DNA of 64,000 bases, taken from positions 44,603-108,602 of the forward strand of contig CAVVJT010000006.1 of the NCBI GenBank assembly GCA_963748625.1, read 5' to 3'. Under the pieces are notes generated by a model, which did not search any database, was not told where the DNA came from, and was given only the letters and a program-made list of their open reading frames with translations. Numbering within the stretch: position 1 is the first letter of the stretch; every line of letters begins with the position of its first letter. This document shows, piece by piece, positions 4,211 through 20,018 of the stretch. The DNA is from an uncultured Chloroflexia bacterium. GTDB lineage: Bacteria > Chloroflexota > Limnocylindria > Limnocylindrales > CSP1-4. A program made the translations under genes and the position numbers.

Positions 4211-5044
4211 ATGCCGCACGGGACAGTCATCGTCATCGGCGGGGCCGAGGACAAGGTCCGCGATCGGGTCATCCTCGGCCAATTCGTCGCGCTCGCGGGC
4301 GGGCCCGAGGCGAGGATCGCCGTGATCGCAACGGCCAGCTCCTTCGGCATGGAGGCGGGCGACCGGTACCGGTCCGTGTTCACCGAGCTGGGTGCTGCGA
4401 ACGTGGCGCCGCTCAACGCCGTGAGCCGCGCGCAGGCGAACGACGAGCACGCGGCGCGAATCATCGGCGACTCCACCGGCATCTTCATGACCGGCGGCAA
4501 CCAGCTCCGGCTCTCGTCGATGCTGGGCGGGACGCGCCTCGCCGACGCGATCATGGCCCGCTTCATGGCCGGTGCCGTGGTCGCAGGCACCTCCGCCGGG
4601 GCAAGCGCCATCTCGTCGCACATGATCGCGTTCGGGGCGTCGGGCGCCACGCCCAAGCACCGGATGGCCCAGATCGCCGCGGGTCTCGGGTTGCTCCCGG
4701 GCGTCATCGTGGACCAGCACTTCCAGCAGCGGAACCGGCTGGGGCGGCTGCTGTCGCTGATCGCCCAGAACCCGTCGCTGCTGGGCCTCGGCGTGGACGA
4801 GGACACGGCCGGCGTCGTGGGCCCGGACCAGGTGATGGAGGTCATCGGGCGCGGGTCCATCACCGTGGTGGACGGCGCGGCGTCCGAGACCGACGCCTGG
4901 GAGATCCGCGGCCACCGGCCCCTCATGATCAGCGGGGTGGTGCTGCACAGCCTGCCGGCGGGCTACCGCTTCGACATTCGTCGGCGGACGCGGGTCTCGG
5001 CGCCGGACCTGCAGGTCATCGAGGGCGAGATCGCCTCGAGCTGA
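4211..5044 (+). CDS. cphB: Cyanophycinase (peptidase S51)
   Basis: 277 aa. VIVIGGAEDK..., GIFMTGGNQLRL, nucleophile motif VVAGTSAGASA, VIVDQHFQQRNRLGRLL. Directly upstream of cphA. Confidence 0.9.
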   Translation: MPHGTVIVIGGAEDKVRDRVILGQFVALAGGPEARIAVIATASSFGMEAGDRYRSVFTELGAANVAPLNAVSRAQANDEHAARIIGDSTGIFMTGGNQLRLSSMLGGTRLADAIMARFMAGAVVAGTSAGASAISSHMIAFGASGATPKHRMAQIAAGLGLLPGVIVDQHFQQRNRLGRLLSLIAQNPSLLGLGVDEDTAGVVGPDQVMEVIGRGSITVVDGAASETDAWEIRGHRPLMISGVVLHSLPAGYRFDIRRRTRVSAPDLQVIEGEIASS

Positions 5045-5147: not shown

Positions 5148-8117
5148 GTGGCGCAGGCGGATCCCGCTTCCCCGAAGCGGCCGAGGAAGACCGCGGCTCC
5201 GGCCGCCGACACGACCGCGGACGGGGGCGCAGCCGCGGCTCCGGCCGCCGCCACCACGCCGGACGCCGGCGCCACGCCGGAGGCGGACCCGGCCACGCCG
5301 CGGCGGAGGGCCTCGGACGCGATCCCGGGCGGCCTGCGTCCCGAGCCCACCCTGCGCATCCTCGAGACCCGCGTCCTGCGCGGCGCCAACTACTGGGCCA
5401 GGGAGCCCGTGATCCGCCAGGTCGTGGATCTGGGCGTGCTCGAGGAGTTCCCGAGCAACACGATCCCTGGTTTCGTCGACGCCCTCGTCGGGTTGCTGCC
5501 AACCCTGGAGGAGCACGCCTGCTCCCTGGGCCGGCGAGGCGGGTTCATCACGCGCCTCCGTGATGGGACCTGGGCGGGCCACGTGGCCGAGCACATCGCC
5601 CTGGAGTTCCAGAACCTCGCCGGCACGGACGTCCGCCACGGCAAGACCCGCGGCACCGGCGAGCATGGTCGCTACAACGTGATCTTCGAGTACCGCGAGG
5701 AGCAGGTCGGCATCGAGGCCGGCCGCAAGGCCGTCGGGCTCGTCAACCACCTCGTGGCGCCCCACGACCCGGCCTTCGACTTCGATCTCATGGCGGAGCT
5801 CGAGAGCCTGATCCTCATGGCGGAGCGGCTCGCCTTCGGGCCCTCCACCCAGGCGCTCATCGACGAGGCCGCGGGCCGCGACATCCCGTACATGCGCCTC
5901 GACCGCTACTCGCTCGTCCAGTTTGGCCAGGGTGTCCACCAGCAGCGAATCCGCGCCACGATGACCAGCCGCACGAGCGGCATCGCGGTGGACATCGCGT
6001 CGGACAAGAAGCTGACCAACCGCCTCCTCGACTCGGCAGGGCTCCCGGTGCCGCGCTCGGAGATGGTGGAGACCGAGGACGAGGCCGTCGCCGCGGCCCG
6101 CCGCCTGGGTTATCCATGCGTCATCAAGCCGCTCGACGGCAACCACGGCAGGGGCGTCGCGCTGGACCTGCTGAACGAGGCCGCCGTCCGCGCCGCCTGG
6201 CCCGAGACGCTGCGCCAGAGCCGCGGCGGCGACGTGATCGTGGAGTCGTACATCACCGGCCGCGACTATCGCTGCCTCGTGATCGGCGGCAAACTCGCGG
6301 CGGTCGCCGAGCGTGTCCCGGCCAGCGTCACCGGCGACGGCGAGCGGACGATCCGCGAGCTGGTCGAGGTCACCAACGCCGACCCGCGCCGGGGCCTCGG
6401 GCACGAGAAGGTCCTCACCCGTATCAGGCTCGATGCCAACGCCGAGGCGGTCCTCGCGGGCCAGGGCTTCGCCCCCGACGACGTGCCGCCCGCCGGCGCC
6501 TTCGTCAAGCTCGCCCTCACGGGCAACATGTCCACCGGCGGCACGTCCATCGACCGCACCCTCGAGGCCCACCCCGACAACGTGGAGATCGCCGAGACGG
6601 CGGCCCGCGTCGTCGGCCTCGACATCGCCGGCATCGACTTCATCTGCCCGGACATCGAGGAGCCGGTCCGCGAGACCGGCGGCGGCATCGTCGAGGTCAA
6701 CGCGGCCCCCGGCTTCCGGATGCACACGCATCCAACCGAGGGTGAGCCCCAGTACGTCGCAAAGCCGGTCATCGATCTCCTGTTCCCGCCCGGCACTCCG
6801 GCCCGCATCCCCATCCTCGCCGTCACCGGGACCAACGGCAAGACGACGACCGTGCGGATGACCGCCCACGTCCTCAAGCTGATGGGCAAGCGCGTGGGCA
6901 TGACGTCCACCGACGGCATCGTCATCGACGGCCGGCTGATGAAGCGCGGCGACATGAGCGGGCCGAAATCGGCACAGATGGTCCTCCAGAACCCGACGGT
7001 GGACACGGCGGTGTTCGAGGTGGCCCGCGGCGGCATCCTTCGCGAGGGCCTGGGCTACGACCGCAACGACGTCGCTGTGGTCACCAACGTCACCGGCGAT
7101 CACCTGGGGATCGGCGGCATCGACACGCTCGGCCAGCTGGCCAACGTCAAGGGCGTGGTCGTCGAGGCCGTGCCGCGGGCGGGGACCGCGGTCCTCAACG
7201 CCGACGACCATCTCGTCTACCGGATGGGACGCCACTGCAGCGGACGCGTAGTGCTGTTCTCGATGTCGAAGGCGAAGGGGGAGGAGGGCTTCGATCGCGT
7301 CGACGGGCACGCCGCGCGTGGCAACGCCGCCTTCTGTCTCGAGGACACGCCCCAGGGCGAGCTCATCGTGCTGCGCCACGGCCCGCGCAAGATGCCGGTC
7401 CTCTACACCCACCTCATTCCCGCCACGTTCGGCGGGCGGGCGCGGATGAACGTCGCCAATGCGCTCGCCGCCGCTGCCGCCGCGTGGTCGATGGGCGCCC
7501 ACATCCACGACATCCGCCAGGGCCTGAGGACCTTCTCGACGTCCTTCTTCCAGGCGCCGGGCCGCCTCAACCTGGTGGAGGTCGCGGGGACGCGCGTGGT
7601 CATCGACTACTGCCACAACGTGGACGGCATGCGCCAGCTGGCGGACTTCGTCAACCGGATGATGGTGGAGCCGCAGACGCGGGCGGGCGTGCTGGGAGCC
7701 TCGGCCGCACCGCCGCGAACCGGGCGAGCCATCGGCGTCATCGGGATCCCGGGCGACCGCCGCGACCAGGACCAGCGCGAATACGGCGCCCTGGCCGCCA
7801 CCGCGTTCGACGAGCTCGTCATCCGCGAGGACCGCAACCTGCGCGGGCGGCAACCCGGCGAGTCGGCGTCCAACGTCGCCGCGGGGATCCGTGCCGCCCG
7901 CGGCGAGGGCGGTGGCCGGGCCGTGCGGATCGACAAGATCCTTGACGAGGCGTCCGCCGTGCGCGCGGCCCTGCGTCGCTCGGCCCCGGGTGACCTCGTG
8001 GTGGTCTGCGCCGACGATGCAGTGGACGTGTACCGGCAGGCGATGGCACTCGCCGGGCGCAACCAGGGCGGCACCGCCTTCGCCGACCCGGGCGAGCTGG
8101 AGGCTCCGCTGGGATGA
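5148..8117 (+). CDS. cphA: Cyanophycin synthetase (N domain + ATP-grasp G domain + Mur-ligase M domain)
   Basis: 989 aa. N-domain LRILETRVLRGANYWAREPVI. ATP-grasp segment YPCVIKPLDGNHGRGV...IVEVNAAPGFRMH. M-domain P-loop VTGTNGKTT, NVTGDHLG, PGRLNL. GAGGAGGG SD before the GTG at 5148. About 68 aa of Ala/Pro/Thr-rich N-terminal extension. Confidence 0.95.
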   Translation: MAQADPASPKRPRKTAAPAADTTADGGAAAAPAAATTPDAGATPEADPATPRRRASDAIPGGLRPEPTLRILETRVLRGANYWAREPVIRQVVDLGVLEEFPSNTIPGFVDALVGLLPTLEEHACSLGRRGGFITRLRDGTWAGHVAEHIALEFQNLAGTDVRHGKTRGTGEHGRYNVIFEYREEQVGIEAGRKAVGLVNHLVAPHDPAFDFDLMAELESLILMAERLAFGPSTQALIDEAAGRDIPYMRLDRYSLVQFGQGVHQQRIRATMTSRTSGIAVDIASDKKLTNRLLDSAGLPVPRSEMVETEDEAVAAARRLGYPCVIKPLDGNHGRGVALDLLNEAAVRAAWPETLRQSRGGDVIVESYITGRDYRCLVIGGKLAAVAERVPASVTGDGERTIRELVEVTNADPRRGLGHEKVLTRIRLDANAEAVLAGQGFAPDDVPPAGAFVKLALTGNMSTGGTSIDRTLEAHPDNVEIAETAARVVGLDIAGIDFICPDIEEPVRETGGGIVEVNAAPGFRMHTHPTEGEPQYVAKPVIDLLFPPGTPARIPILAVTGTNGKTTTVRMTAHVLKLMGKRVGMTSTDGIVIDGRLMKRGDMSGPKSAQMVLQNPTVDTAVFEVARGGILREGLGYDRNDVAVVTNVTGDHLGIGGIDTLGQLANVKGVVVEAVPRAGTAVLNADDHLVYRMGRHCSGRVVLFSMSKAKGEEGFDRVDGHAARGNAAFCLEDTPQGELIVLRHGPRKMPVLYTHLIPATFGGRARMNVANALAAAAAAWSMGAHIHDIRQGLRTFSTSFFQAPGRLNLVEVAGTRVVIDYCHNVDGMRQLADFVNRMMVEPQTRAGVLGASAAPPRTGRAIGVIGIPGDRRDQDQREYGALAATAFDELVIREDRNLRGRQPGESASNVAAGIRAARGEGGGRAVRIDKILDEASAVRAALRRSAPGDLVVVCADDAVDVYRQAMALAGRNQGGTAFADPGELEAPLG

Positions 8118-8404
8118 GCGACGCGGGCGTGCCGTGACGGGCTCCGGTGGGCCGCGGGGCGCGGAGCTCGAGGTCCGCGCACCTGGCGAACCCATACCCC
8201 CGGCCGCGCTGCTCAGGATGGCTCGCGTTGGGTGTATCGGATCCGGGCCACGACGGTGCGGAGGAGCAGTCGACGAGCGACCACATCGGCCGATCGTACT
8301 GGGCTGATCTGAGCACGAATCGGGGTTGCCGACCCCCACGGGCCGAACGCCGCCGCCTGCCGGGCGCATCATCGTCTCGACAATGCACGGCAGGGTGGGG
8401 AGCC

Positions 8405-8695
8405 ATGGAACGAGACAGCGCACCACGACGGTTCGCGACCCTGGTGCTCGCTGCAGCGGCAATCGGATCTCCACTCGCGGGTTGTGGCACGCCGACGACA
8501 CCGTCGGCTGTGCCGAGCCCTTCCAGCGACCAGCCGGCACCCGCGACCCGGCAGGGGGAAAGCCGGGCCGCGACCGGAGTGTGCGTCACTCAGCCGGACG
8601 CGAGCAGGGCAGTCGCTCCGGACATGGCATCAACCTCGACGAACCAGTGGCTCGTCACGTCGGCGGTCGTCCCGTCGGCCCTGCCGGACAGGTAG
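8405..8695 (+). CDS. Putative small lipoprotein (weak call)
   Basis: Internal ATG of ORF 8147..8695. MERDSAPRRFATLVLAAAAIGSPLAGC has a lipobox followed by a Pro/Ser/Thr linker. However, third-position GC is lower than in neighbouring genes, and the 3' 100 nt overlap a convergent ORF whose wobble positions coincide. Confidence 0.3.
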   Translation: MERDSAPRRFATLVLAAAAIGSPLAGCGTPTTPSAVPSPSSDQPAPATRQGESRAATGVCVTQPDASRAVAPDMASTSTNQWLVTSAVVPSALPDR

Positions 8696-8885
8696 ACCTG
8701 CCAGACGAGCCGCTGCTCGCCGGCCTGGGTGAAGGTGATCGGCAGCTCGGCCGTGTCCCCCTTGACGCCAGTGGCGTCGGTGATGACGGTGGCGCTGCGG
8801 ACTCGGCGGCAACGCGTGCGACCGCCGGCGTGGGCGGGTCGGCGTACGGCCGGGACACGTTGACGATGGCCGCCCGGCGGCCCAT
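8590..8885 (-). CDS. Hypothetical small protein with an apparent frame break near 8795-8805
   Basis: An ATG at 8885 with AGAGGG upstream gives MGRRAAIVNVSRPYADPPTPAVARVAAESA (frame of ORF 8655..8885). The well-composed C-terminus TVITDATGVKGDTAELPITFTQAGEQRLVWQVYLSGRADGTTADVTSHWFVEVDAMSG is in the frame of ORF 8590..9339. Third-position GC supports each frame only in its own segment. Confidence 0.35.
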
Positions 8886-9037
8886 CTGTCGCCCTCTGGC
8901 GGCGAACCGTCCTCTGGGCGGCCAATTGCCGTCGTAGCGGCTGCGAGGGACTGGTCTGGTCGCGCCCAGGGGACCGAGCGTCCGGGTGCGGCGACGAACG
9001 GTCCGCCCAGCGGACCGGGGAGCCCCCGGAGCCCGCC

Positions 9038-10801
9038 CTACTCCCGAACGCGCCCCTGGTCGGTGAGCCTCGGCGCCAGGGCCAGGAGTTCCGTGGCCAC
9101 GTCAACCCCACGCGCCCCCAGGCGCTCGAGCAGCGCGAAGACCTGGTCCCGATCCTGGTGGCAGAACAGCACGACGACCCGCGGCGCGTCGGGGCGCCCA
9201 TCGGCGGCGACGCTGCCCGCACCGACCAGCTCCGCATCGAGGGCCATTGCCTCACTCTCGTAGACCGGGACCGTCGCTGGGTCCAGGCCACCCTCCATGA
9301 GCCCCTCGCCGATGACCCGCACGATCTCCGCGCGATCACGTCCGCGCAGGTAGGCGAGGGTCTCCTTGAGCACGACCCGCTGCGCCCGCTGCGCGGCGAG
9401 GCGCCCGATCCCCCGCAGCGTGTCGTCCGGCCGGTCGCCGGCGGTCCCGATGATGGCGGTCACGGGCGCGACCCCTTCGGCCTCCCCGCCGGCGATCGCC
9501 GACGCGACGTCGAGGATCGCCTCCGTGCCGGCCTCGTTGTGCGCGAAGTCCACGATGATCGTCCGACGGCCGAGGCGGAACAGGTTGAGTCGCCCCGGCG
9601 AGAGGTCTGCAGACGGCCGGAAGTCCAGGAGCCCGGCCGAGACCTGCTCGCGCGTCGCACCCAGCGCCCGTGCCCCGCCGGCCGCCGCCAGCGCGTTCGC
9701 GACGTTGTGCCTCGCCAGGCCGCCCAGCGCGACGGGCAGGTCGGCGACGTCGAGCAGGGCTTGCGCGGCGGCGCCGTCCCATTCGACCAGCCGGCCCCGA
9801 TCGAGGACCCAGGCGAGCCCGCCCGCGCGCCGGTGGCGCGCGAGGAGCGGCGAGGAACCCGGGTCCATCGAGAAGTAGGCCACGCGCGCTCGTACCCGGC
9901 GCGCGATGCTCGCCACGAGCGGGTCGTCGGCGTTGAGCACGACGAGTCCGCCGGGCTTCGTCACGCGGCACACCGTCGCCTTGACCTCGGCGAGCTCCGG
10001 GAGCGTGTGGATGCCCTGCAGATCGAGGTGGTCCGCCGAGATGTTGGTGAACACACTCGCCTCGTTGGACTCATAGCCCATGCCCCGCAGGACGAGGCCG
10101 CCGCGCGCCGTCTCCAGGACCGCCACGTCCACGTCGTCCCGGCGCAGGACCGCCGCCGCGCCACCCGGCCCGGTCCAGTCCCCGGCGTCGACCATGCGCT
10201 CGTCCACGAGGATCCCGTCGCTGGTCGTCGTGCCGACGTGGTGCCCGGCCAGCAGCAGGATGTGGGTGATCAGCCGGGTGACGGTCGACTTGCCGTTGGT
10301 CCCGGTGATGGACACGACGGAGATCCGCCGATCGGCGTCGCGGATCCAGGCCGGCGGGGCAGCGCCGGCCTCCGCGATCCGGGCCTCCCAGCTGTCCACG
10401 AGGCGTTCCTGGGTCATCGTCAGGTGCACGCGACGGGCCGCCGAGACAGACCGGCCGGCGAGGTCCACCGCGGCCTCCGCGAGCAGGCGGGCCCGCTCGG
10501 CGCCCGACCAGGGCCAGGTGATCACCCATCGGCCGGCATCCGACGCCCGGTGGACGACCGCGGGACCCGCATGCTCGCCATGGTCGGCGCGGAGCCGCCG
10601 GGTCCAGGCCACGATATCCGCCACGGGATCCGGCCACTCGCGCATCGGCACCGGACGGGCGAGATGCACGGTGGACCCATCCGAAGGCGTCCGGGATCCC
10701 TTCCAGGTGCGCGTCCGGCCGACGGTGACTTCGACCTTGACCACCGGCAGCAGCCGGTAGACGTTGGGGCCCTCGAGCAGCCGGATCTCCACGAGTCGCA
10801 C
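9038..10801 (-). CDS. Cyanophycin-synthetase-like protein: CphA N-domain joined directly to the Mur-ligase (M) domain, with no ATP-grasp domain
   Basis: 587 aa. MRLVEIRLLEGPNVYRLLPVV parallels the start of the CphA N-domain. P-loop SITGTNGKST already at residues 165-173. M-domain blocks align by eye with cphA (TSDGILVD, ETARGGLVLRGMGYE, NISADHLD, NADDPLV, PGRLNL, DFAHNEAG). Confidence 0.85.
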   Translation of the reverse strand: MRLVEIRLLEGPNVYRLLPVVKVEVTVGRTRTWKGSRTPSDGSTVHLARPVPMREWPDPVADIVAWTRRLRADHGEHAGPAVVHRASDAGRWVITWPWSGAERARLLAEAAVDLAGRSVSAARRVHLTMTQERLVDSWEARIAEAGAAPPAWIRDADRRISVVSITGTNGKSTVTRLITHILLLAGHHVGTTTSDGILVDERMVDAGDWTGPGGAAAVLRRDDVDVAVLETARGGLVLRGMGYESNEASVFTNISADHLDLQGIHTLPELAEVKATVCRVTKPGGLVVLNADDPLVASIARRVRARVAYFSMDPGSSPLLARHRRAGGLAWVLDRGRLVEWDGAAAQALLDVADLPVALGGLARHNVANALAAAGGARALGATREQVSAGLLDFRPSADLSPGRLNLFRLGRRTIIVDFAHNEAGTEAILDVASAIAGGEAEGVAPVTAIIGTAGDRPDDTLRGIGRLAAQRAQRVVLKETLAYLRGRDRAEIVRVIGEGLMEGGLDPATVPVYESEAMALDAELVGAGSVAADGRPDAPRVVVLFCHQDRDQVFALLERLGARGVDVATELLALAPRLTDQGRVRE

Positions 10802-10810
10802 GGTTCGGAA

Positions 10811-10816
10811 ACTCTA
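10811..10816 (-). promoter_or_regulatory. -10-like TAGAGT box 9 nt upstream of the GTG start of the CphA-like gene
   Basis: The reverse strand reads TAGAGTttccgaaccGTG with no SD. Same TAGAnT type as upstream of cphB and the M20 gene. Confidence 0.3.
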
Positions 10817-10878
10817 CGCGAGCGGGCACCGCGGCGACTGCCCGCTCCGGCGCCACGTGGCGCGGGGTCGTGTGCCGA

Positions 10879-10884
10879 TAGACT
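10879..10884 (+). promoter_or_regulatory. -10-like TAGACT box 6 nt upstream of the ATG of the M20 peptidase gene
   Basis: gccgaTAGACTggccgcATG with no SD. The hexamer is identical to the one before cphB. Confidence 0.3.
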
Positions 10885-10890
10885 GGCCGC

Positions 10891-12141
10891 ATGGTTCGCT
10901 CCGACAACGCCCTCGTCGCACCGGAAGAGCTCGCCGCGCTGCGGGCGAGCATCGAGCGGGCCTACCCGGCCTATCTCGCCGACCTCGAACGGCTCGTGAA
11001 CACGGACTGCGGCAGCTACACGAAGGCCGGCGTGGACGCCATCGGCCACTGGACCGCGGAGCGGCTCCGGATCCTGGGCTTTGCGGTGACGGCGCACGAG
11101 AACGACGAGGACCTGGGCGAGACGGTCATCGGCGAGCTGCGAGGGACCGACCCTGACGGGCCGACGCTCCTCTGCATCGGCCACATGGACACGGTCTTCG
11201 ACCCCGGGACGGTCGAGGAGCGGCCGTTCGCCATCCAGGGGGGCATCGCCACGGGCCCCGGTGTCACGGACATGAAGAGCGGGCTGCTGGCAGGGCTGCA
11301 CGCGATCGCCGCCGTGCGCGAGGTCCTGGGCGGCGTCCCGTTCGCGCGCCTGGTGTTCGTCGCCAATCCGGACGAAGAGATCGGGTCGCCGGTGTCCACG
11401 CCGCACATCCGGCGGCTCGCCCGCGAGGCCGATGCATGCCTGGTCTTCGAGTGCGCGCGCGGGAACGGCGACATCGTGTCGTCGCGGAAGGGGACGCTGG
11501 ACCTGGTCGTCACGGTGACCGGGCGGGCGGCCCATGCCGGCGTTGAGCCCGAGAAGGGGCGCAGCGCGGTCCTCGAGGCCGCCCGGATCACGCTGGACCT
11601 CCACGCGCTCAACGGGCGCTGGGCGGGGGTCACGGTCAACGTCGGGGTCATCGAGGGCGGCACGCGGCCGAACGTTGTCGCGGAGCGATGCTCGCTCGAG
11701 GTGGATGTGCGGGCGGTGACGCGCGAGGGCCTGGAGGGGGTCGAGGCGGCGATCGCCCGCGTCCTCGCGCCGCAGCTCGTGCCGGACGTCACGGTGGAGT
11801 CCGTCCAGACCGGCCGTCACTGGCCGATGGAGAAGCTGGAGCGGTCCTGCAGGCTCGTCGAGCGTGCCGTGAGCCTCGCCGACGAGCTGGGCTTCGAGCT
11901 CCGTGACGCCATGACCGGCGGAGCGTCGGACGCGAACACGACTGCGGGCATGGGCGTGCCCACGCTCGACGGGCTGGGCCCCATCGGCGGGATGGACCAC
12001 TCGCCGCAGGAGTACCTGGAGGTCGCGTCGATCGTTCCCCGGACCACGCTGCTCGCCGCGTTGATCGTGGCCGTCGGGCGCGACCCCGAAGTCCGGCGCT
12101 GGCGGGCCGAACGCCTGGCGAGGACGGGTGTCGCGCGGTGA
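10891..12141 (+). CDS. M20 family metallopeptidase (carboxypeptidase G2 / glutamate carboxypeptidase-like)
   Basis: 416 aa. Metal and catalytic motifs LLCIGHMDTVF, GPGVTDMKSG, VANPDEEIGS, GRAAHAG, GGMDHSPQEY. Confidence 0.85.
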   Translation: MVRSDNALVAPEELAALRASIERAYPAYLADLERLVNTDCGSYTKAGVDAIGHWTAERLRILGFAVTAHENDEDLGETVIGELRGTDPDGPTLLCIGHMDTVFDPGTVEERPFAIQGGIATGPGVTDMKSGLLAGLHAIAAVREVLGGVPFARLVFVANPDEEIGSPVSTPHIRRLAREADACLVFECARGNGDIVSSRKGTLDLVVTVTGRAAHAGVEPEKGRSAVLEAARITLDLHALNGRWAGVTVNVGVIEGGTRPNVVAERCSLEVDVRAVTREGLEGVEAAIARVLAPQLVPDVTVESVQTGRHWPMEKLERSCRLVERAVSLADELGFELRDAMTGGASDANTTAGMGVPTLDGLGPIGGMDHSPQEYLEVASIVPRTTLLAALIVAVGRDPEVRRWRAERLARTGVAR

Positions 12142-12524
12142 GTCGCCGCCACGTCGGGAGCGGAGGGCCCTGGGAGGCACGCGCCGGCTACTCGCGGGCC
12201 CTGGCCGTGGGCGACGCCTGCTTTGTGGCGGGCACCACGGACGCTGGGCCTGACGGCGAGTCGCGGAACCCGGGCGACGCCGCGGGCCAGGCGCGCGCGG
12301 CATTCGCGATCGTCGAGGGCGCGCTGATCGAGGCGGGCTTTGCCCTTGACGACGTGGTCAGGACCCGGATGTACGTCGTGGACCCGGGCGATGCCGACGT
12401 CGTCGCGGCGGTTCACGGCGAGCTGTTCCGGCATGTTCGGCCGGCCGCAACCCTGGTCGTGGTCGCGGGTCTGATGCGCCCCAGCCTCCGCGTCGAGGTG
12501 GAGGCGGAGGCCCGGCGCGGCTGA
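12138..12524 (+). CDS. RidA/YjgF/TdcF family protein
   Basis: 128 aa. YSRALAVGDACFVAGTT...QARAAFAIVEGALIEAGFALDDVVRTRMYV...PAATLVVVAGL. The GTGA overlap with the M20 stop indicates translational coupling. Confidence 0.85.
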   Translation: MSRRHVGSGGPWEARAGYSRALAVGDACFVAGTTDAGPDGESRNPGDAAGQARAAFAIVEGALIEAGFALDDVVRTRMYVVDPGDADVVAAVHGELFRHVRPAATLVVVAGLMRPSLRVEVEAEARRG

Positions 12525-12542
12525 GCGGAGGCGGGCCTCCGC
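12525..12542 (+). terminator. Weak terminator-like hairpin after the RidA gene
   Basis: GCGGAGG-cggg-CCTCCGC, a 7-bp stem immediately after the stop codon. No T-tract. Confidence 0.3.
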
Positions 12543-12545
12543 CAT

Positions 12546-12894
12546 GCGGACCTGCGCCCGTCGCGCCCGTCGCGGGCTGTGAGCCTGGTTCCTGTCGGAT
12601 GCCCGTGGAGCGGACCGTGTCCGGCCATCTGCCACCGGTGGGTCGGGTCGGGTGGACACCGGGCACCGTGGTGCGTGCCTGGGCTCGCCATCACGCGCGC
12701 GACCCTCCCGCCGCTGGTCCATCACGCGGACCGTAGGCGAGACGCTCCTGCCTACCGTCCGCCACCCGGACGGATGGCGGAAGGACCGCCGTCCGGAGCC
12801 GATACCGTCCGTGGAGCGGACCGCTGGCGGGATGGGGCGAGATAGCGTCCGCTGGGCGGACAATCGGCGGGAAGCGGGGCGGAAGTGGGGCGGG
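12546..12894. repeat. Intergenic cluster of GCGGACC heptamers, GTCCG/CGGAC inverted repeats and a G-run tract
   Basis: GCGGACC at 12546, 12610, 12726 and 12816 (GCGGACA at 12856). Inverted repeats CGGAC-cgt-GTCCG (12611), CCGTCCG-ccacc-CGGACGG (12755), GGAC-cgcc-GTCC (12783) and GTCCG-ctggg-CGGAC (12847). The 14-nt CGTGGAGCGGACCG occurs twice. GGG/GGGG/GGGG/GGG runs at 12869-12894. Confidence 0.6.
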
Positions 12895-12913
12895 AACGGC
12901 CCACCACGTCCGG

Positions 12914-13246
12914 TCAGCCCAGGCTCAGCATCCGGGCCAGCGCCACGAATGCGACGCCCGCGATCAGCCCCAGGAGCAGGTTCCTGCGCCAGGCGACCAC
13001 GGCCACGCACACTAGCACCCCCAGGATCTCCGGGCCCAGGACGATCGACCGCGCCCCCGCGTCGTCCGTCCGGACGAGGGTCTGGGTTGCCGCGATGGAC
13101 GCCAGGATGGCAGGCCCGACGAGCCGGAGGTAGACAAGGGCACGGGGCGGCAGGCGCTCGATGCCCGGCGCCAGGAGCGGCACGGCCCGGGAGGGGTACG
13201 TGACAGCTGCCATCAGCAGCGCGAGGAGAACGAGCTCCGTGCTCAA
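12914..13246 (-). CDS. azlD: Branched-chain amino acid transport protein AzlD
   Basis: 110 aa, three hydrophobic segments. MSTELVLLALLMAAVTYPSRAVPLL is typical of AzlD. 4-nt overlap with azlC. Confidence 0.8.
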   Translation of the reverse strand: MSTELVLLALLMAAVTYPSRAVPLLAPGIERLPPRALVYLRLVGPAILASIAATQTLVRTDDAGARSIVLGPEILGVLVCVAVVAWRRNLLLGLIAGVAFVALARMLSLG

Positions 13247-14049
13247 GGCGTCCCCCCGGCCGGCAGCTCGTCGACCTCGGCCATCGCCTCGTCAAGGTCC
13301 ACGCGCAGGCCCGTGAGGTCCGACTCCGGCGCCACCTGCGAGCCGCCGTCGGGTATCGCCATGCCGATCAGCGGTCCGAGGAGGCCTCCGGCCACGATCC
13401 CGACGCTCGGCCCGAGGAGCAGCGAGAACAGCACGCCGATCGCCGCGCCCGCCCCCGCGGCGACGATCTCGCGGCGGCCGGTCGCGAGGCCCACCGCCAG
13501 GCCGGCCATCGCGGCCGGGAACACGACGTCGAGCCCGTACGCGGAAGGGTCGACGATCGCGCCGCCCAGCAGCACCCCGGCGAGCGTGGCGAGGTTCCAC
13601 GGGATGAACACGCCCAGGACCGCCCCAATCCAGTAGCCCGGGACGTCCACGCGCCCGATCCGGTGGAAGTGGGTGGCGGCAAGTGCGAACGCCTCGTCGG
13701 TGAGCACGTGGGCCATCGCGGCGCGCTGGAGGAACGGGAGCTGTCGCAGCCGCGGCGCCAGCGATGCGCTGTAGAGCAGGTGGCGGGCGTTCAGGAAGAA
13801 CGTGAGCACGAGGATGGGCAGCCAGGGCAGGCCGGCGCTCACGTAGCCCACGGCCGCGAACTGCGCCGCGCCGGAGAAGGCAAACACGCTCATCGCGGCC
13901 GCCTCGATGGTCGAGTAGCCGGCGTCGCGGGCGGCCAGCCCGAACACGAACCCGAACCCGACGGCAGATACGGCGATGCCCGCGGTGTCCAGGAGGAGGC
14001 GGTGGCGCGCGGCCCGCAGCTCGGCGTCGGCCCCGTTAGTGTCGCTCAA
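13243..14049 (-). CDS. azlC: AzlC family branched-chain amino acid permease component
   Basis: From ORF 13243..14145. GFVFGLAARDAGYS...MSVFAFSGAAQFAAVG...FFLNARHLLYSASL. Start placed at the in-frame TTG at 14049 to avoid overlapping the upstream small gene; the start is uncertain. Confidence 0.8.
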   Translation of the reverse strand: MSDTNGADAELRAARHRLLLDTAGIAVSAVGFGFVFGLAARDAGYSTIEAAAMSVFAFSGAAQFAAVGYVSAGLPWLPILVLTFFLNARHLLYSASLAPRLRQLPFLQRAAMAHVLTDEAFALAATHFHRIGRVDVPGYWIGAVLGVFIPWNLATLAGVLLGGAIVDPSAYGLDVVFPAAMAGLAVGLATGRREIVAAGAGAAIGVLFSLLLGPSVGIVAGGLLGPLIGMAIPDGGSQVAPESDLTGLRVDLDEAMAEVDELPAGGTP

Positions 14050-14065
14050 GCGGCCCGCCGGGGGA

Positions 14066-14338
14066 CTAGCGCAGGAAGGACTTCGCGCAGGTCCCGTCGC
14101 AGACCGTGAAGACCGCGCGCTTCTCGATGGCGTAGCCCGCGGCATGCAGGAGGCCGGCGCAGCCCGTGGTGGGGCACTTCCACACCCACCATCGGTCGTT
14201 GTGGTCCAGGGGGATGGCCTCGGCCTTGAGCTTGTCGGCGAGACCCTCGCGCCCCCCGATCAGCTCGGCGACACAGGCCGCGCGAACGGCCTCGGTCTCG
14301 CTGGTGTAGGGGTAGTTCTGGCCGACGTTCGAGGTCAC
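14066..14338 (-). CDS. Small Cys-rich hypothetical protein (about 90 aa)
   Basis: 3' end of shadow ORF 14066..15481. A GTG start has GGAGG 6 nt upstream. VTSNVGQNYPYTSETEAVRAACVAELIGGREGLADKLKAEAIPLDHNDRWWVWKCPTTGCAGLLHAAGYAIEKRAVFTVCDGTCAKSFLR, with CxxxxC...CxxxC at the C-terminus. Confidence 0.55.
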   Translation of the reverse strand: MTSNVGQNYPYTSETEAVRAACVAELIGGREGLADKLKAEAIPLDHNDRWWVWKCPTTGCAGLLHAAGYAIEKRAVFTVCDGTCAKSFLR

Positions 14339-14459
14339 GGGCGCCTCCGCTGTCCACACGGGGCCGGCGGCAGATCGGTGTGAACGCGGCTGCCACCGGC
14401 TGGCGGAGGATACCACCCGGCGGCGGCTGCTCCGGGCCGTCCGCCACCCGTCCGAGGGC

Positions 14460-16124
14460 TCATCGAACCGCCGGCAGCCCCGCGCTCCGGGGATCCGTGG
14501 CAGCGGCCAGGGATCCGGCCGCCGCGGGTCCGCCGTCCACCAGCTCGATGGCGTGCTCGTGCCCCAGGCCGCCCTCGTACGAGACGTGCCCGAGTCGGTG
14601 CCCCCGCTCGAGGAGCCCCGCCACCACCCCGTCCCCGAGCTCGCCGTCCGTGAGGACGCGCACGGGCGGCGCGAGCCATCCGTCCGGCTCGACCGTGATC
14701 CGGGGCGCCGCAACCGCGGTCGCGATGTCCGCCCCGCCGTCCACCAGTGCGGACACGAGCTGGACGTGGATCTGGGGCTGGATGTCGCCGCCCATGGACC
14801 CGGCAACGACCCACGGGCGCCGTTCTCCTTCGCGGAACAGCATCCCGGGCATGAGGGTATGGGCCGTTCGCTTGCGCGGCTCGAGGACGTTGGGGTGGGA
14901 CGGATCCAGCGAGAACGACGCGCCGCGGTTCTGGAAGTGCACGCCTGTCGCCGGGTCCAGGACGCCGGACCCGAAGCCCGCCGCATTCGACTGGATGAGG
15001 CTGACGGCGTTGCCCTCGGCGTCCACGACGCCCAGCCAGATCGTGCCGCCCACGAGGGTGCGAGCCGGGGGCGGTGCCGGGTCGGCGCGTGACGGATCGA
15101 CCCGGGCGGCCAGCGCCAAGGCGTGCTCTCGCGAGAGGAGCCGCTCCACCGGGACGTCGCGGAACCCAGGGTCCGTGAGCAGCCGGTCGCGGTCCCCGAA
15201 GGCGAGCTTGGCGGCCTCGAGCTGGAGGTGTGGCCAGGCGGCGTCGGACCAGCCGTGACCGGTGAAGCGGGCGCCCGGCGGGGGCTCGAACTGCTCCAGG
15301 ACGTTGAGGATCTCGAGGGCCAGAACGCCGCTGCTGTTGGGCGGGTGCGTCGTGACCCGGACGCCCCGGTACGTGGTGGAGATCGGTGAGCCCCAGGTGC
15401 TGCGGTGCTCCCGCAGGTCGGCCGCGGTGTGCGCGCCGCCGAACGCCCGCAGCCCGGCCGCGATCCGCTCACCCAGGTCACCGTCGTAGCAGGCGTCGAA
15501 GCCGTCGACGGCGAGGGTGCGCAGGGAGGCGGCCAGCGCGGGGAGCCGGATCAGCTCGCCGTGCCGCCACGGGCGCCCCTCGGGCCGCCACACGCTCCGG
15601 AACCCGGCCGTCCACGGCTCCCGGCCCAGGCTCGCCTCCGTCCCCTCCACGGCGTCCACCAGCCCGGCCCACGCCGGGAACCCGGCCGCCGCGTGCTCGA
15701 TCGCCGCCGCGAGCACCGCGTCGCGGGACAGGCGGCCCCAGCGGCGATGGGCATCGGCCCAGGAGCGAACCGCGCCCGGGACCGTGATGGCGAGCGGCCC
15801 GCGCAGCGGAATCCGGTCCAGGCCACGGTCGCGCAGCCCGGCGGCGTCCACCCCGGCCGGTGAGCGCCCGGAGCCGTTGAGGGCCACCTGCTCGCCGGCC
15901 GCCTCGTCCCACACCAGCCAGAACGCGTCGCCGCCGATCCCACAACCGTTGGGCATCACCACGCCCAGCACGGCGTTGGTGGCGATGGCGGCGTCCACGG
16001 CATGCCCGCCGGCCGCAAGCACGGCCAACCCGGCCGCCGTCGCGAGATGATGCGGCGCCACGACGGCACCGCGGGTTCCGCGGACCAGCCGGGCGGGAAC
16101 GAGCGCCACGTCAGGCTCTGGCAT
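14460..16124 (-). CDS. ggt: Gamma-glutamyltranspeptidase family Ntn-hydrolase
   Basis: 554 aa. VVAPHHLATAAGLAVLAAGGHAVDAAIA, GIGGDAFWLV, predicted autoprocessing site LVGG|TIWLGVVDAEGNAVSLIQSN, GSMGGDIQPQ. Confidence 0.9.
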   Translation of the reverse strand: MPEPDVALVPARLVRGTRGAVVAPHHLATAAGLAVLAAGGHAVDAAIATNAVLGVVMPNGCGIGGDAFWLVWDEAAGEQVALNGSGRSPAGVDAAGLRDRGLDRIPLRGPLAITVPGAVRSWADAHRRWGRLSRDAVLAAAIEHAAAGFPAWAGLVDAVEGTEASLGREPWTAGFRSVWRPEGRPWRHGELIRLPALAASLRTLAVDGFDACYDGDLGERIAAGLRAFGGAHTAADLREHRSTWGSPISTTYRGVRVTTHPPNSSGVLALEILNVLEQFEPPPGARFTGHGWSDAAWPHLQLEAAKLAFGDRDRLLTDPGFRDVPVERLLSREHALALAARVDPSRADPAPPPARTLVGGTIWLGVVDAEGNAVSLIQSNAAGFGSGVLDPATGVHFQNRGASFSLDPSHPNVLEPRKRTAHTLMPGMLFREGERRPWVVAGSMGGDIQPQIHVQLVSALVDGGADIATAVAAPRITVEPDGWLAPPVRVLTDGELGDGVVAGLLERGHRLGHVSYEGGLGHEHAIELVDGGPAAAGSLAAATDPRSAGLPAVR

Positions 16125-17391
16125 CGGCCGCCACGCCGCCCACCTGGTGCTCGTACCGGCGCAGCCTGCTCAGCGGCAGGAAGGCGATCGCCAGGAGGAT
16201 CAGCGACGCGACGAGGATTCCGTCGAGCCCCGCCGCCTGGGCCGCCACGCCGCCCACGATGCTGCCCACGATCTGACCGAGGCCCAGGAACACCGAGTAG
16301 AGGCCCATGATCGCGCCCCGGTCGTCGGGGTAGGCCTCGGTCATGTCCGCGAGCAGGCCGATGGCGGCGGGCGTGGCTCCGGCGAGGACGAACAGACCCG
16401 CAGCCGCGATCACGACCAGCGCGAGCAGCAGCGGCAGGGGGTCGGCGCCCACGTGGTTGATGGCCGCGGCGGCCGTCAGCATCACCGCGCCGCCGATGAT
16501 CCCGTAGACGATGATCGACGTCCTGCGCATGCTCTTGAACTTGCCGCCCCAGTAGAACAGGCCCGCGAAGAACAGGAGCCCGCCGATCGCCAGGCCCGCG
16601 CTGACCTGGAGCGGGTCGAAGCCGCCCATGAGCTGCTGCTCCGAGAACCGCGGGTCGGGCTCGCGGACCAGCTGGAACAGTGTCTGGCTGGTGTACAGGC
16701 CGAGCGTGGCGTTGATGGCGATCCACGTGGGCGCCAGCAGCCAGACGTGGGAACCGCGCAGGATCCGGAGGTAGCGATGCAGGCCCTCGTCGGGATCGTG
16801 GCCGTGGGCCGCCGGCGCCGGCTCGGCGTGCTCGGGGACACCCAGCTTGTAGATCGCGAAGGAGACGCCGTACAGGACCGCGTTGGCCAGGAACGCCGTG
16901 GGGCCCAAGGCAGCGAACAGCGGGCCCGCGACGACGAAGCCGAGCAGCAGCCCCGCCAGGGTCGCGGCCTCGAACCGGGCGACGGCTTTGCCCCGCAACA
17001 GCTCGTCGGAGGCGGTGGCGAAGGCGATGAACCCCAGGATCGAGGGTACCGACGCGGCCGTCGACGCTCCCTCGAGCAGGCGGGTGAAACCGATGACCGG
17101 GAGGCTGACCGCGAACGCCGTGATGATGACGGCGACTGCGCCGAATGCCGGGCCAACGAGCATGATCCGGCGGTGGCCGACGCGATCCGACAGGACACCG
17201 AAGATCGGCGAGAGCACGAGCTCGCTCGCGTAGAACAGCGCCCCCAGGACGCCGATCTCCCATGCCTCCACGGTCTCGCCGCCGTACCGGGGCAGGACGG
17301 CCAGGTAGTAGATCAGCATGGCGCCGGTCACGCCCGTCGCGAGTCGCAGCGTGAAGGTGCCGAAGATCACCGCGAGGATGGGACGCGCCAT
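16111..17391 (-). CDS. MFS transporter
   Basis: 426 aa with about 12 TM segments. FGVLSDRVGHRRIMLVG loop motif. Its stop overlaps the ggt start by 14 nt. Confidence 0.85.
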   Translation of the reverse strand: MARPILAVIFGTFTLRLATGVTGAMLIYYLAVLPRYGGETVEAWEIGVLGALFYASELVLSPIFGVLSDRVGHRRIMLVGPAFGAVAVIITAFAVSLPVIGFTRLLEGASTAASVPSILGFIAFATASDELLRGKAVARFEAATLAGLLLGFVVAGPLFAALGPTAFLANAVLYGVSFAIYKLGVPEHAEPAPAAHGHDPDEGLHRYLRILRGSHVWLLAPTWIAINATLGLYTSQTLFQLVREPDPRFSEQQLMGGFDPLQVSAGLAIGGLLFFAGLFYWGGKFKSMRRTSIIVYGIIGGAVMLTAAAAINHVGADPLPLLLALVVIAAAGLFVLAGATPAAIGLLADMTEAYPDDRGAIMGLYSVFLGLGQIVGSIVGGVAAQAAGLDGILVASLILLAIAFLPLSRLRRYEHQVGGVAADARA

Positions 17392-17573
17392 GCATGGAAG
17401 CGTATCGGGTCGGGACCGTGCGGTCGTGCCCGAATTTCCGCCGGGACTGATCGTGGCCGCGCGGGCGTGCGCGCCGGTTGCTGTCGCCGAGCCACGCCGC
17501 TCCGTATGATCCGTGTCCCGAGAGGGAGCCCCGCCCGCGGCGGCAACCGTCAGCGCCCGAGGAGGCCCAGCCC

Positions 17574-18419
17574 GTGTCCCGTGTCGCGATCGTCACCGAC
17601 TCTGCCAGCGACCTGCCGCCCGAGGTCGCGGCCGCGGCCGGCATCACCATCGTCCCGCTGGTCGTGAACTTCGGGTCCGAGACGTTCCGCCCGAACGTCA
17701 ACCTGACCACCGACGAGTTCTGGGCCCGGATGACCGCGCCCGACGCGCCGTTCCCGACGACCGCCGCCGCCTCGCCGGGCGACTTCGGGAAGGCCTACCA
17801 GGCGGCGTTCGGCGCCGGCGCCGGCGCCGTCGTCTGCATCACCGTGTCGGGCGACCTGTCCGGCACGCTCAAGTCCGCGACGCTCGGCGCGCAGGGGCTG
17901 CCGGACCGCGAGATCCACGTCATCGACTCCCGCTCCGCGTCCATGGGCCACGGGATGCTGGCCCAGGTAGGCGCGGAGATGGCAGCCGAGGGGGCGACCG
18001 GGGCGGTGATCGCGGCGGCCCTCGAGGAGGCCAGGACGCGCATCAACCTGTACGTGGCGCTGGACACGCTCGAGTACCTCAAGCGCGGCGGGCGGATCAG
18101 CGGCGCGCGCGCGGCGATGGGCACGATGCTCTCGATCAAGCCGATCATCACGGTGACCGACGGCCTGGTGGAGAACGCCGAGCGGGTGCGGACCCGGGCG
18201 AAGGCGCGCGAGCGCTGCCTGGAGCTCCTGACCGAGCGTCCGATGGAGCGGGTGACCGTCCTGCACACCACCAACGCCGATGTCGAGGAGTTCCGTGCCC
18301 GGCTCATCGAGCGGGCCGGACTGGATCCGGCCAGGGTCCAGACGATGACCGTCGGGCCGTCCGTTGGCCCGCACCTTGGCCCGGGCTGCGTCGGCGCCGT
18401 GGCGATCTACGAGGCCTGA
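17574..18419 (+). CDS. degV: DegV family fatty-acid-binding protein
   Basis: From ORF 17478..18419. GTG start with GGAGG 8 nt upstream. VAIVTDSASDLP, PTTAAASPGDF, ITVSGDLSGT, LEYLKRGGRI. Confidence 0.9.
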   Translation: MSRVAIVTDSASDLPPEVAAAAGITIVPLVVNFGSETFRPNVNLTTDEFWARMTAPDAPFPTTAAASPGDFGKAYQAAFGAGAGAVVCITVSGDLSGTLKSATLGAQGLPDREIHVIDSRSASMGHGMLAQVGAEMAAEGATGAVIAAALEEARTRINLYVALDTLEYLKRGGRISGARAAMGTMLSIKPIITVTDGLVENAERVRTRAKARERCLELLTERPMERVTVLHTTNADVEEFRARLIERAGLDPARVQTMTVGPSVGPHLGPGCVGAVAIYEA

Positions 18420-18706
18420 TCGAGTCGCCGGTTGCGATGCATCGGTGCGGGCGAGAACCTCGGCAGCGTCCCGGACCCCTGCCACTCGACAGGGACGGCG
18501 AGGTGACGGATTGGTTGCGGCAGGGTGACGAGCGGCCCGTGGGCGGGGCCGTCTCGTGGCTATACTCGGACTTCGAAGGCGGCGTGCGACGAGCGGCCGG
18601 CCATGCCGTGGCCGGCACTCGAAACCGCCCCCGTGGGGTCGTCCGGATGACGACCCATCGCTCAGGGACGGCGTCCACCGCCCCGCCACCGAGGATCTTC
18701 CGTTCC

Positions 18707-19972
18707 ATGACGACGGAGAAGGCAACGGCGCCGATCAACGCCTGGCAGGTCGCGCAGCACCAGTTTGATCTCGCGGCCGAGATGCTCAACCTTGACCCGG
18801 GCCTGCGCAATGTGCTGCGCGAGCCGCGCCGCGAGCTCACGGTCCACTTCCCGGTGCACATGGACGACGGTACCGTCCAGGTCTTCACCGGCTATCGCGT
18901 CCAGCACAATCTCGGCCGAGGCCCCGCCAAGGGCGGCATCCGGTACCATCAGGACGTCACGCTCGACGAGGTCAAGGCCCTCGCGATGTGGATGACCTGG
19001 AAGTGCGCGGTCGTGGGTATCCCGTACGGTGGCGGCAAGGGCGGCGTCAGCGTCGACCCCAAGAAGCTGTCCCAGCGGGAGCTCGAGGGCCTCAGCCGCA
19101 GGTACTTCACCGAGATCTCGATCCTCATCGGACCCGAGCGCGACATCCCGGCGCCGGACGTCAACACGACGCCCCAGATCATGGCCTGGTTCATGGACAC
19201 GTATTCCATGCACGTCGGCTACACGGTCCCCGGCGTGGTGACCGGGAAGCCGATCAGCCTGGGCGGCTCGGAGGGTCGCAACGAGGCCACCGCGCGCGGC
19301 TGCGTGTTCACGATCGTGGACGCGGCCAAGCACCTCGGCATGGACCTCGCCAGGACGACGACCGTCGTCCAGGGCTTCGGCAACGCCGGCTACATCGCGG
19401 CGCGGCTCATGGCCGACGAGCGTTCGACGATCATCGCGGTCTCCGACACGGGCGGCGGCATCAAGAACGAGGACGGCCTCGACGTCGACCGCGTGCTCAA
19501 CTGGAAGAAGGAGCACGGCACCGTCGTCGGGTTCCCGGGCAGCACGACGATCACGAACGCGGAACTCCTGGAGCTGCCCTGCGACATCCTGATCCCGGCC
19601 GCCTACGAGAACCAGATCACCGCCGCGAACGCGGACAACGTGAAGGCCAAGATCGTCGCCGAGGCCGCCAACGGTCCCACGACACCCGAGGCCGACAAGA
19701 TCCTGGCGAGCAAGGGCGTGTTCATGATCCCGGACATCCTCGCGAACGCCGGCGGCGTGACCGTCAGCTACTTCGAGTGGGTGCAGGACCTGAACCGCGA
19801 CCACTGGAGCGAGGCCGTCGTCAACGCCAAGCTCAAGGAGATCATGGACCGCTCCTTCGGGGAGGTCCTCGCGATGGCGCATCTCAAGGACGTCGACATG
19901 CGCACGGCGGCGTACCTCGTCGCCGTGAAGCGCGTCGCCGACGCGACCGCCCTCCGCGGCCTCTACCCGTAA
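18707..19972 (+). CDS. gdh: Glutamate dehydrogenase (Glu/Leu/Phe/Val dehydrogenase family)
   Basis: Last 421 aa of track ORF 17513..19972. GPAKGGIRYH, catalytic-Lys box GIPYGGGKGG, VQGFGNAGY Rossmann motif, ANAGGVTVSYFEWVQ. Confidence 0.95.
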   Translation: MTTEKATAPINAWQVAQHQFDLAAEMLNLDPGLRNVLREPRRELTVHFPVHMDDGTVQVFTGYRVQHNLGRGPAKGGIRYHQDVTLDEVKALAMWMTWKCAVVGIPYGGGKGGVSVDPKKLSQRELEGLSRRYFTEISILIGPERDIPAPDVNTTPQIMAWFMDTYSMHVGYTVPGVVTGKPISLGGSEGRNEATARGCVFTIVDAAKHLGMDLARTTTVVQGFGNAGYIAARLMADERSTIIAVSDTGGGIKNEDGLDVDRVLNWKKEHGTVVGFPGSTTITNAELLELPCDILIPAAYENQITAANADNVKAKIVAEAANGPTTPEADKILASKGVFMIPDILANAGGVTVSYFEWVQDLNRDHWSEAVVNAKLKEIMDRSFGEVLAMAHLKDVDMRTAAYLVAVKRVADATALRGLYP

Positions 19973-20018
19973 GCCCCCCGCGGCCATCGTGGCCGTAGCG
20001 ATTGGCTACGCGCGAAAT

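Follow-up and report, generated by a model that had tools for sequence, protein, structure and literature searches.

The N+M gene and its product

The stretch of DNA analysed here (64,000 nucleotides of contig CAVVJT010000006.1 from an uncultured Chloroflexia bacterium), which we refer to as the window, has a G+C content of about 72% and carries a cyanophycin gene cluster. Beside its cyanophycin synthetase gene (cphA) lies an open reading frame (ORF) of 587 amino acids, at 9038..10801 of the minus strand and with a GTG start codon that we number as residue 1. CphA1 enzymes consist of N, G and M domains and carry out both reactions of cyanophycin synthesis: the ATP-grasp (G) domain extends the Asp backbone, and the M domain, which resembles Mur ligases, ligates Arg to the side chain. 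A preliminary description, prepared from the letters of the window, had read the ORF as a CphA paralog with N and M domains but no G domain. We therefore call its product the N+M protein.

The ORF exists as described, and its strand, which had not been given, is the minus strand. Third codon positions have a G+C fraction (GC3) of 0.91, like other genes in the window. Every string quoted earlier is found in the translation, that is MRLVEIRLLEGPNVYRLLPVV at the start, ITGTNGKST at residues 165–173, TSDGILVD, ETARGGLVLRGMGYE, NISADHL and PGRLNL.

The Mur-ligase domain

Only two Pfam models matched the N+M protein, both above their gathering scores: Mur_ligase_M at residues 165–375 (78.2 bits, cutoff 24) and Mur_ligase_C at residues 403–522 (31.7 bits, cutoff 28.4). 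The best NCBIfam model was that of cyanophycin synthetase, TIGR02068, which scored 370 bits against a whole-protein cutoff of 850 and was matched at model positions 474–835 only. MurE models came next with about 100–104 bits (murE 102.8, cutoff 257.3), and the protein also stayed under the cutoffs for MurT (35.8 vs 800), folC (45.7 vs 162.65) and PgsB (25.7 vs 222.7).

Direct comparisons gave the same picture. In BLASTP, residues 159–555 aligned with residues 553–962 of the neighbouring CphA at 36% identity (E = 2e-56), so the alignment previously made by eye holds. Four CphA1 proteins led a search of PDB sequences, with 197–256 bits (255 bits for the M domain against SuCphA1 residues 485–840), and the best of the other Mur-type chains reached at most 52 bits. 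An AlphaFold model of the full-length protein had a mean predicted local distance difference test (pLDDT) score of 66.9; when it was submitted to Foldseek, the top 10 matches were all CphA1, followed by Mur ligases. Judged by these comparisons, the M domain is clearly a CphA-type Mur-ligase domain, and the sequence places the protein in the Mur-ligase superfamily, within the branch of CphA M domains.

Residues needed for catalysis can be traced from TeCphA1. There, the P-loop (495–501) binds ATP, K499 and T500 take part in ATP and Mg binding, and the K499A exchange impairs activity; T522 and E558 are Mg ligands, N497 contacts adenine, and R731 and H748 of the lid contact phosphate (PMC9427784). 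Their counterparts in the N+M protein are the P-loop 167–173 with K171 and S172, the pair S194 and E230, N169, and the lid residues R404 and H421. All of these, together with the N253..D257-H258 motif and K274, are invariant in the family, as checked in 30 homologues of 70–89% identity. A search for lost Mur-ligase catalytic residues thus found none, and by its sequence the domain looks active.

Absence of the ATP-grasp domain

No ATP-grasp model of Pfam matched the N+M protein, whereas the neighbouring CphA matched eight. When the G domain of that CphA was used as a tblastn query, cphA itself was the only match in the 64-kb window, and cphA was again the only one in 82 related loci (L001–L082, 80 of which come from the best 80 of 376 genomes in the scan reported below). 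Residues 1–165, the adjacent frames and the rest of the window hold no ATP-grasp sequence except cphA. The tblastn search of the window rules out that the gene is split, with its G domain encoded close by.

The N-like domain extends to about residue 158, with the P-loop starting at residue 167. The reported lack of the G domain was correct, and only its size of roughly 390 residues had to be reduced, to about 320–330. Since the G domain is absent, the N+M protein cannot extend the backbone.

The N-terminal part

The N-terminal part is much harder to recognise. Its pairwise match to the neighbouring CphA was weak (28% over 39 residues, E = 0.022 in BLASTP), and PF18921, the Pfam model of the CphA N domain, matched neither the N+M protein nor the N-termini of 22 family members, with E values up to 10 allowed. 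The NCBIfam scan left this part undetected as well. A profile of the family N-termini, run against PDB sequences, retrieved no CphA and only chance RuBisCO matches (E ~0.6), and a phmmer search of 1.84 billion representative proteins with the N-terminus yielded 130 matches at E ≤0.001, none of which was a canonical CphA1. CphA1 N domains are themselves very divergent from one another: that of the CphA in the window matched the Tatumella enzyme with E = 0.001.

Profile–profile comparison gave a different result. In hhalign, the 22 family N-termini scored 28.5–29.5 against five CphA1 N domains (pairwise P 5e-4 to 8e-4), in a collinear alignment of family positions 1–125 with CphA1 positions 1–141. 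Over 200 column shuffles the score averaged 12.0 ± 2.1 (standard deviation) and never exceeded 20.1; reversing the profile gave 13.5.

Fold comparison pointed the same way. Residues 1–160, modelled alone and template-free with AlphaFold, gave a pLDDT of 81.8 and a predicted TM-score (pTM) of 0.78, with the topology beta-beta-alpha-beta-beta-alpha-alpha. Among 350,542 PDB chains searched with Foldseek, the 13 best were all CphA1 or CphA2 (query TM-score, TMq, 0.40–0.58); after them came kinases with a probability of at most 0.25. The N part is thus recognised by profile–profile and fold comparison only, and sequence-to-profile methods miss it. The resemblance to CphA noted in the preliminary description stands in hhalign and Foldseek, but it is weak in the pairwise alignment and missing in the PF18921 scan. 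On the strength of profiles and models, residues 1–158 appear to be a real, if remote, homologue of the CphA N domain, lying outside the curated PF18921 model.

A Cx19HxxEH motif occurs in primer-independent CphA1s. It is the metallopeptidase motif of the CphA1 N domain (PMC9262961) and marks the site that cleaves cyanophycin. A motif check of N+M residues 1–160 found neither Cx19HxxEH nor any HxxEH or Cys residue, and in the hhalign alignment a gap in the N+M N part coincides with the position of the motif in CphA1. A GPNVY loop is kept; the equivalent stretch of Acinetobacter baylyi CphA1 reads VGPNVYASIPLIRLVIDL. In SuCphA1, the hydrophobic loop that corresponds to it (Y14, I17) touches the M domain, and Y14 touches cyanophycin too (PMC9262961).

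Distribution, selection and divergence from CphA1

At a clustering level of 90% identity, over 120 clusters reach 70% identity or more to the N+M protein across 95–100% of its length, all with members of about 556–624 amino acids. The exact protein of the window is present in public collections, where NCBI calls it 'Mur ligase family protein' and the automatic annotation of JGI 'cyanophycin synthetase'. Its N-terminal domain is encoded in 376 of 185,579 GTDB species genomes. The best 80 of these 376 are Chloroflexota metagenome-assembled genomes (MAGs) labelled Candidatus Limnocylindrales, uncultured Chloroflexia, Anaerolineaceae or Chloroflexota, apart from two that are labelled otherwise. 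As a class, Limnocylindria accounts for essentially all of the 80. The ratio of nonsynonymous to synonymous substitution rates (dN/dS), calculated against four orthologues, is 0.13–0.24 in the N part and the M part alike. The N+M genes are a real gene family under purifying selection.

Many apparent distant relatives (P0181, P0216, P0217 and others) in a library of representatives at 50% identity were odd, in that most align to the ORF only in pieces, in a manner resembling frame-shifts. They make the family look more diverse than it is. On the one contig inspected, that of P0181 (locus L083), the same locus recurs in a version full of errors, with cphA also in pieces. Entries of this kind, P0181 and P0217 among them, were left out of the evidence for a wider distribution.

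The M domain is 34–41% identical to any CphA1 M domain, while diverse CphA1 M domains share 41–49% with one another, and in an unrooted tree it forms a long branch of its own. Identity to the M domain of the neighbour is only 35%, below that to cyanobacterial CphA1, so the gene is not a recent copy of the adjacent cphA. Of the 93 positions at which ten CphA1 M domains all agree, the N+M family keeps 59 and has changed 34.

Radical changes that are fixed in the family cluster in and around the lid. They comprise DHLGxG to DHLDLQ, E279R, IRxGLxTF to VAxGLRDF, PGDRRDxD to AGDRPDDT, and (K/R)(E/D)D..-xRGR (KEDDD-xRGR) to KETLxYLRGR, the last with a one-residue insertion. In Mur ligases, the corresponding motifs of the C-terminal domain contact the incoming amino acid. 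The changed lid motifs therefore make an altered donor or acceptor specificity plausible.

Gene neighbourhood

Along the window, the order is MFS (major facilitator superfamily) transporter, cyanophycinase, cphA, a 920-bp spacer, the N+M gene, M20 metallopeptidase, RidA, AzlD/AzlC, gamma-glutamyltransferase and another MFS transporter (Table 1). Besides the eight ATP-grasp models, the neighbouring CphA matches Cyanophycin_syn and Mur_ligase_M/C in Pfam. As this CphA1 is complete, the N+M protein is an addition to it, not a replacement. The N domain of the CphA1 contains the motif C125-x19-HVAEH, which predicts that the enzyme is primer-independent.

Table 1. Features of the cyanophycin cluster, in coordinates of the window
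Feature	Position	Strand	Basis or details
N+M gene, CphA-like ligase	9038..10801	-	GTG 10799-10801, stop 9038-9040
N-domain-like part, residues 1-158	10328..10801	-	AlphaFold, Foldseek, hhalign
Mcore (Mur-ligase ATPase core), residues 159-396	9614..10327	-	Pfam; alignment to SuCphA1 and TeCphA1
P-loop G167-T-N-G-K171-S-T173	10283..10303	-	Sequence; unchanged in 30 homologues
Mlid (Mur-ligase C-terminal domain) and conserved C-terminal tail, residues 397-587; R404, H421, AGDRPDDT, KETLxYLRGR	9041..9613	-	Pfam; motif comparison (family-specific motifs vs 10 CphA1 M domains)
N+M/M20 intergenic region, 89 bp	10802..10890		Two conserved -10-like hexamers
Cyanophycinase (S51 peptidase)	4211..5044	+	TIGR02069 256 bits (cutoff 126.6); Pfam Peptidase_S51
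CphA1, complete (N+G+M), convergent with N+M	5148..8117	+	TIGR02068 1125 bits, whole model
M20 metallopeptidase (DapE/ArgE/CPG2-like), divergent from N+M	10891..12141	+	Peptidase_M20 and M20_dimer; NF004788 289 bits (cutoff 349)
RidA-family gene	12138..12524	+	4-nt overlap with M20 end; TIGR00004 48.5 bits, under cutoff
AzlD/AzlC, gamma-glutamyltransferase, MFS transporter	12914-17391	-	Pfam/NCBIfam

The length of 989 amino acids first given for this CphA is that of the maximal ORF at 5148..8117. The ORF is there, but orthologues are called at 879–969 amino acids, and therefore the true start of cphA is probably downstream of 5148. The maximal ORF opens (5148–5350, plus strand) with about 68 Ala/Pro/Thr-rich residues ahead of the N domain.

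A conserved block of cyanophycinase, cphA, N+M, M20, RidA, AzlCD and gamma-glutamyltransferase runs through the 82 related loci. M20 adjoins N+M in all 82; in L002 and L022, which lie on the same contig, IS110 genes intervene, and this insertion (an IS110-type transposase with DEDD_Tnp_IS110 and Transposase_20 matches at 6614–7663 of L002) is the only break of the pair that we saw. The RidA-family gene adjoins M20 in most loci. In every locus with a sufficiently long flank, a complete and convergent cphA follows downstream of N+M, at a distance of about 20 bp to about 8 kb. Across the 80 genome-scan loci, conservation is higher in CphA (~74–99% identity) than in N+M (60–90%).

One subclade (L048, L049, L070, L073 and L077) has an insertion between N+M and cphA, at about 12,000–20,000 in locus coordinates, that pushes cphA 7–8 kb off or past the fetched flank. 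The insertion carries an ABC transporter (SBP_bac_8 and two permeases), an Amidohydro_3 protein and an arginase-family protein, which look like further genes of arginine or cyanophycin catabolism in the cluster.

AzlD/AzlC is of the branched-chain amino-acid exporter type, and the gamma-glutamyltransferase scores 339 bits with TIGR00066, just below the cutoff. Together with the MFS transporter, these genes are kept beside the cluster in nearly all related loci, either as members of the pathway or merely as syntenic genes. The spacer between cphA and N+M (8118–9037), which measures 920 bp here, is about 20–350 bp long in close relatives. It holds a small ORF (8406–8695, plus strand) whose start, MERDSAPRRFATLVLAAAAIGSPLAGC, resembles a lipoprotein signal, and its opposite strand has a protein-like reading (...ITFTQAGEQRLVWQVYLSGRADGTTADVTSHWFVEVD...); Pfam matched none of the readings of the spacer.

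Among the cluster genes scanned with Pfam, no homologues of IadA, IaaA or CphZ were noticed, the last being a desuccinylase-like protein (PMC9974463). By analogy with CphZ, the M20 enzyme may therefore be an undescribed hydrolase of beta-Asp-Xaa, the cyanophycin dipeptide.

In the region between N+M and M20, TAGAGT (10811–10816, minus strand) lies 9 nt upstream of the GTG of N+M, and TAGACT (10879–10884, plus strand) lies 6 nt upstream of the ATG of M20. When the window is aligned with 19 other loci, the columns of both hexamers are conserved. This suggests that N+M and M20 have separate divergent transcripts, possibly leaderless or near-leaderless, for which the hexamers would act as promoter elements. 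A scan of 8000–11000 for the sigma-70 consensus found no -35/-10 pair, and a terminator consensus scan of the same region found no terminator.

Comparison with known enzymes

The N+M protein shares with CphA1 (TIGR02068; PDB 7LG5, 7WAC, 7LGN, 7LGM) the CphA-type Mcore and Mlid with the full set of ATP and Mg residues, apparently the N-domain fold with its GPNVY loop, and a place in a cyanophycin gene cluster. It differs in that the entire G domain (~325 residues) and the Cx19HxxEH motif are missing, in the changed M-domain positions and in the low TIGR02068 score.

CphA2 (PDB 8FXH, 8FXI) polymerises dipeptides. It is built of an N domain, a G domain that is active and an M domain that is truncated and inactive (PMC10273328), and so its architecture is, as previously remarked, the opposite of N+M. 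The two resemble each other in being reduced members of the CphA family that have kept a non-catalytic N domain and specialise, putatively in the case of N+M, in one of the two CphA1 reactions. Unlike CphA2, the N+M protein has a full-length and apparently active M domain and no G domain, which makes it a mirror image.

With the Mur ligases (MurC–F, especially MurE, and MurT, FolC, PgsB and the pseudomurein pMur enzymes) it has in common Mur_ligase_M and Mur_ligase_C, the P-loop, the Mg-binding Glu, the DH motif, the Arg and His of the lid, and a three-part layout of acceptor-binding domain, core and lid. It is set apart from them by an N-terminal domain with the CphA N fold instead of a UDP-binding domain 1, and by scores far below the NCBIfam cutoffs for Mur, FolC and MurT and below its score with the CphA model.

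No characterised family with the N+M architecture was found; the best NCBIfam model is the CphA model, under its cutoff, and the existing annotations are generic or automatic. We also found no description of an N+M-only enzyme in the cyanophycin literature, although many subscription papers lay outside the search and an earlier mention is possible.

Proposed function and alternatives

What the analysis establishes is the architecture and fold of the N+M protein, the integrity of its catalytic residues, the purifying selection on it and its conserved place in a cyanophycin cluster. Action in trans, an acceptor that is cyanophycin or poly-Asp and the choice of donor amino acid we infer. The protein would be a stand-alone ATP-dependent side-chain (isopeptide) ligase that works in trans, its substrate being cyanophycin-type chains from the adjacent CphA1, and we consider this reading probable, if not strongly so. 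As both the N domain and the M domain are kept, the protein would retain the unit that binds a cyanophycin chain. A divergent CphA N domain that lacks the peptidase site and is fused straight to Mcore and Mlid would bind such a chain; the unit would then use ATP to activate an Asp side-chain carboxylate that is still free, and join an incoming amino acid to it by an isopeptide bond. The chains would come from the co-encoded, complete and apparently primer-independent CphA1, and the enzyme would either finish undecorated Asp residues or attach a side chain other than Arg.

In its more specific form, the proposal is that of a tailoring ligase with a donor that CphA1 does not use, so that the two enzymes would together make a cyanophycin with mixed side chains and M20 would be the matching isopeptidase. 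A different donor is hinted at because the AGDRPDDT and KETLxYLRGR changes remove acidic residues. We regard this version as unlikely.

Several points weigh against a ligase that works on the chains of CphA1. The N domain is poorly modelled in the full-length AlphaFold prediction (pLDDT 33–71), and the N–M interface cannot be judged from it. More than a third of the M positions that are invariant in CphA1 differ, fixed radical changes among them, and judging from these sequences the acceptor or donor may not be the same as in CphA1. The gene is convergent with cphA and seemingly has its own promoter, and its sole invariant neighbour is M20, which would fit a small-molecule pathway too. The gene block is conserved within one class, and its synteny may partly reflect shared ancestry rather than function. 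Finally, the carriers are uncultured MAGs, and the function is read from sequence, fold and context.

Those observations lead to the strongest of the alternatives, in which the enzyme does not serve CphA at all. In partnership with M20 and RidA, it would make a small molecule or dipeptide with an isopeptide bond, for example by turning free amino acids into beta-Asp-Arg or a different N-acyl or isopeptide compound, and its N-like domain would play the acceptor-binding role of Mur-ligase domain 1. M20 is adjacent in every locus while the distance to cphA varies widely, N+M and M20 share the 89-bp divergent region with its conserved -10-like elements, the lid motifs are unlike those of all CphA1, and the N-like domain has no cyanophycin-cleaving site. 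However, the CphA N-domain fold has no known role other than to bind the cyanophycin chain (PMC9262961, PMC9427784), by its sequence the M domain clearly belongs to the CphA type, and M20 could just as well be the beta-Asp-Xaa dipeptidase that is missing from the cyanophycin cluster and thus belong to the same pathway. We rate this alternative as doubtful, while taking it seriously. It is very improbable that the protein ligates nothing and instead, as a non-catalytic or regulatory partner, enters CphA1 oligomers or attaches to cyanophycin granules. CphA2 shows that inactive domains of the CphA family can persist (PMC10273328), and Mcore shares in the oligomer contacts of CphA1 (PMC9427784); yet an inactive domain would be expected to lose its catalytic residues, as the M domain of CphA2 was truncated, and here the residues that bind ATP, Mg and phosphate are invariant in the 30 homologues.

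Two further explanations concern the origin of the gene. It could be a relic of a three-domain Mur-type ligase (N, core, lid) that existed before the fusion, with the ATP-grasp domain inserted later to give CphA1; this is an evolutionary claim, compatible with the functional readings, and to us a rather improbable one. The M domain is indeed an outlier among the sampled CphA1s, and the protein has the same N, core, lid order as the Mur ligases. On the other hand, the family is narrowly distributed, essentially in one Chloroflexota class, with its 130 representatives among 1.84 billion proteins, which better fits duplication, loss of the G domain and fast divergence, and the unrooted tree cannot choose between the two histories. 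An assembly artefact, or a pseudogene decaying after deletion of the G domain, we regard as refuted. Some of the database relatives are frame-shifted long-read contigs, but the same intact product of about 585 amino acids appears in many independent MAGs and studies, with low dN/dS and invariant catalytic residues.

Implications

Natural and maintained by selection, the N+M enzyme is the missing mirror image of CphA2. If it is the side-chain ligase that we favour, ligation of side chains can be done by a separate protein, and this raises the questions of whether natural cyanophycins are finished, repaired or diversified after backbone synthesis and of how the three-domain synthetase evolved. 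The function is inferred and directly testable, and it would surprise the specialists of a small field.

With such an enzyme, side chains of choice could be attached to poly-Asp or cyanophycin. Should its donor indeed differ from that of CphA1, the two CphA1 reactions would be naturally separable, a tool for designer cyanophycins would be ready at hand, and soil Limnocylindria would contain a chemically distinct cyanophycin. The family is common in Limnocylindria, an abundant and uncultured soil lineage, and it therefore bears on nitrogen storage in soil.

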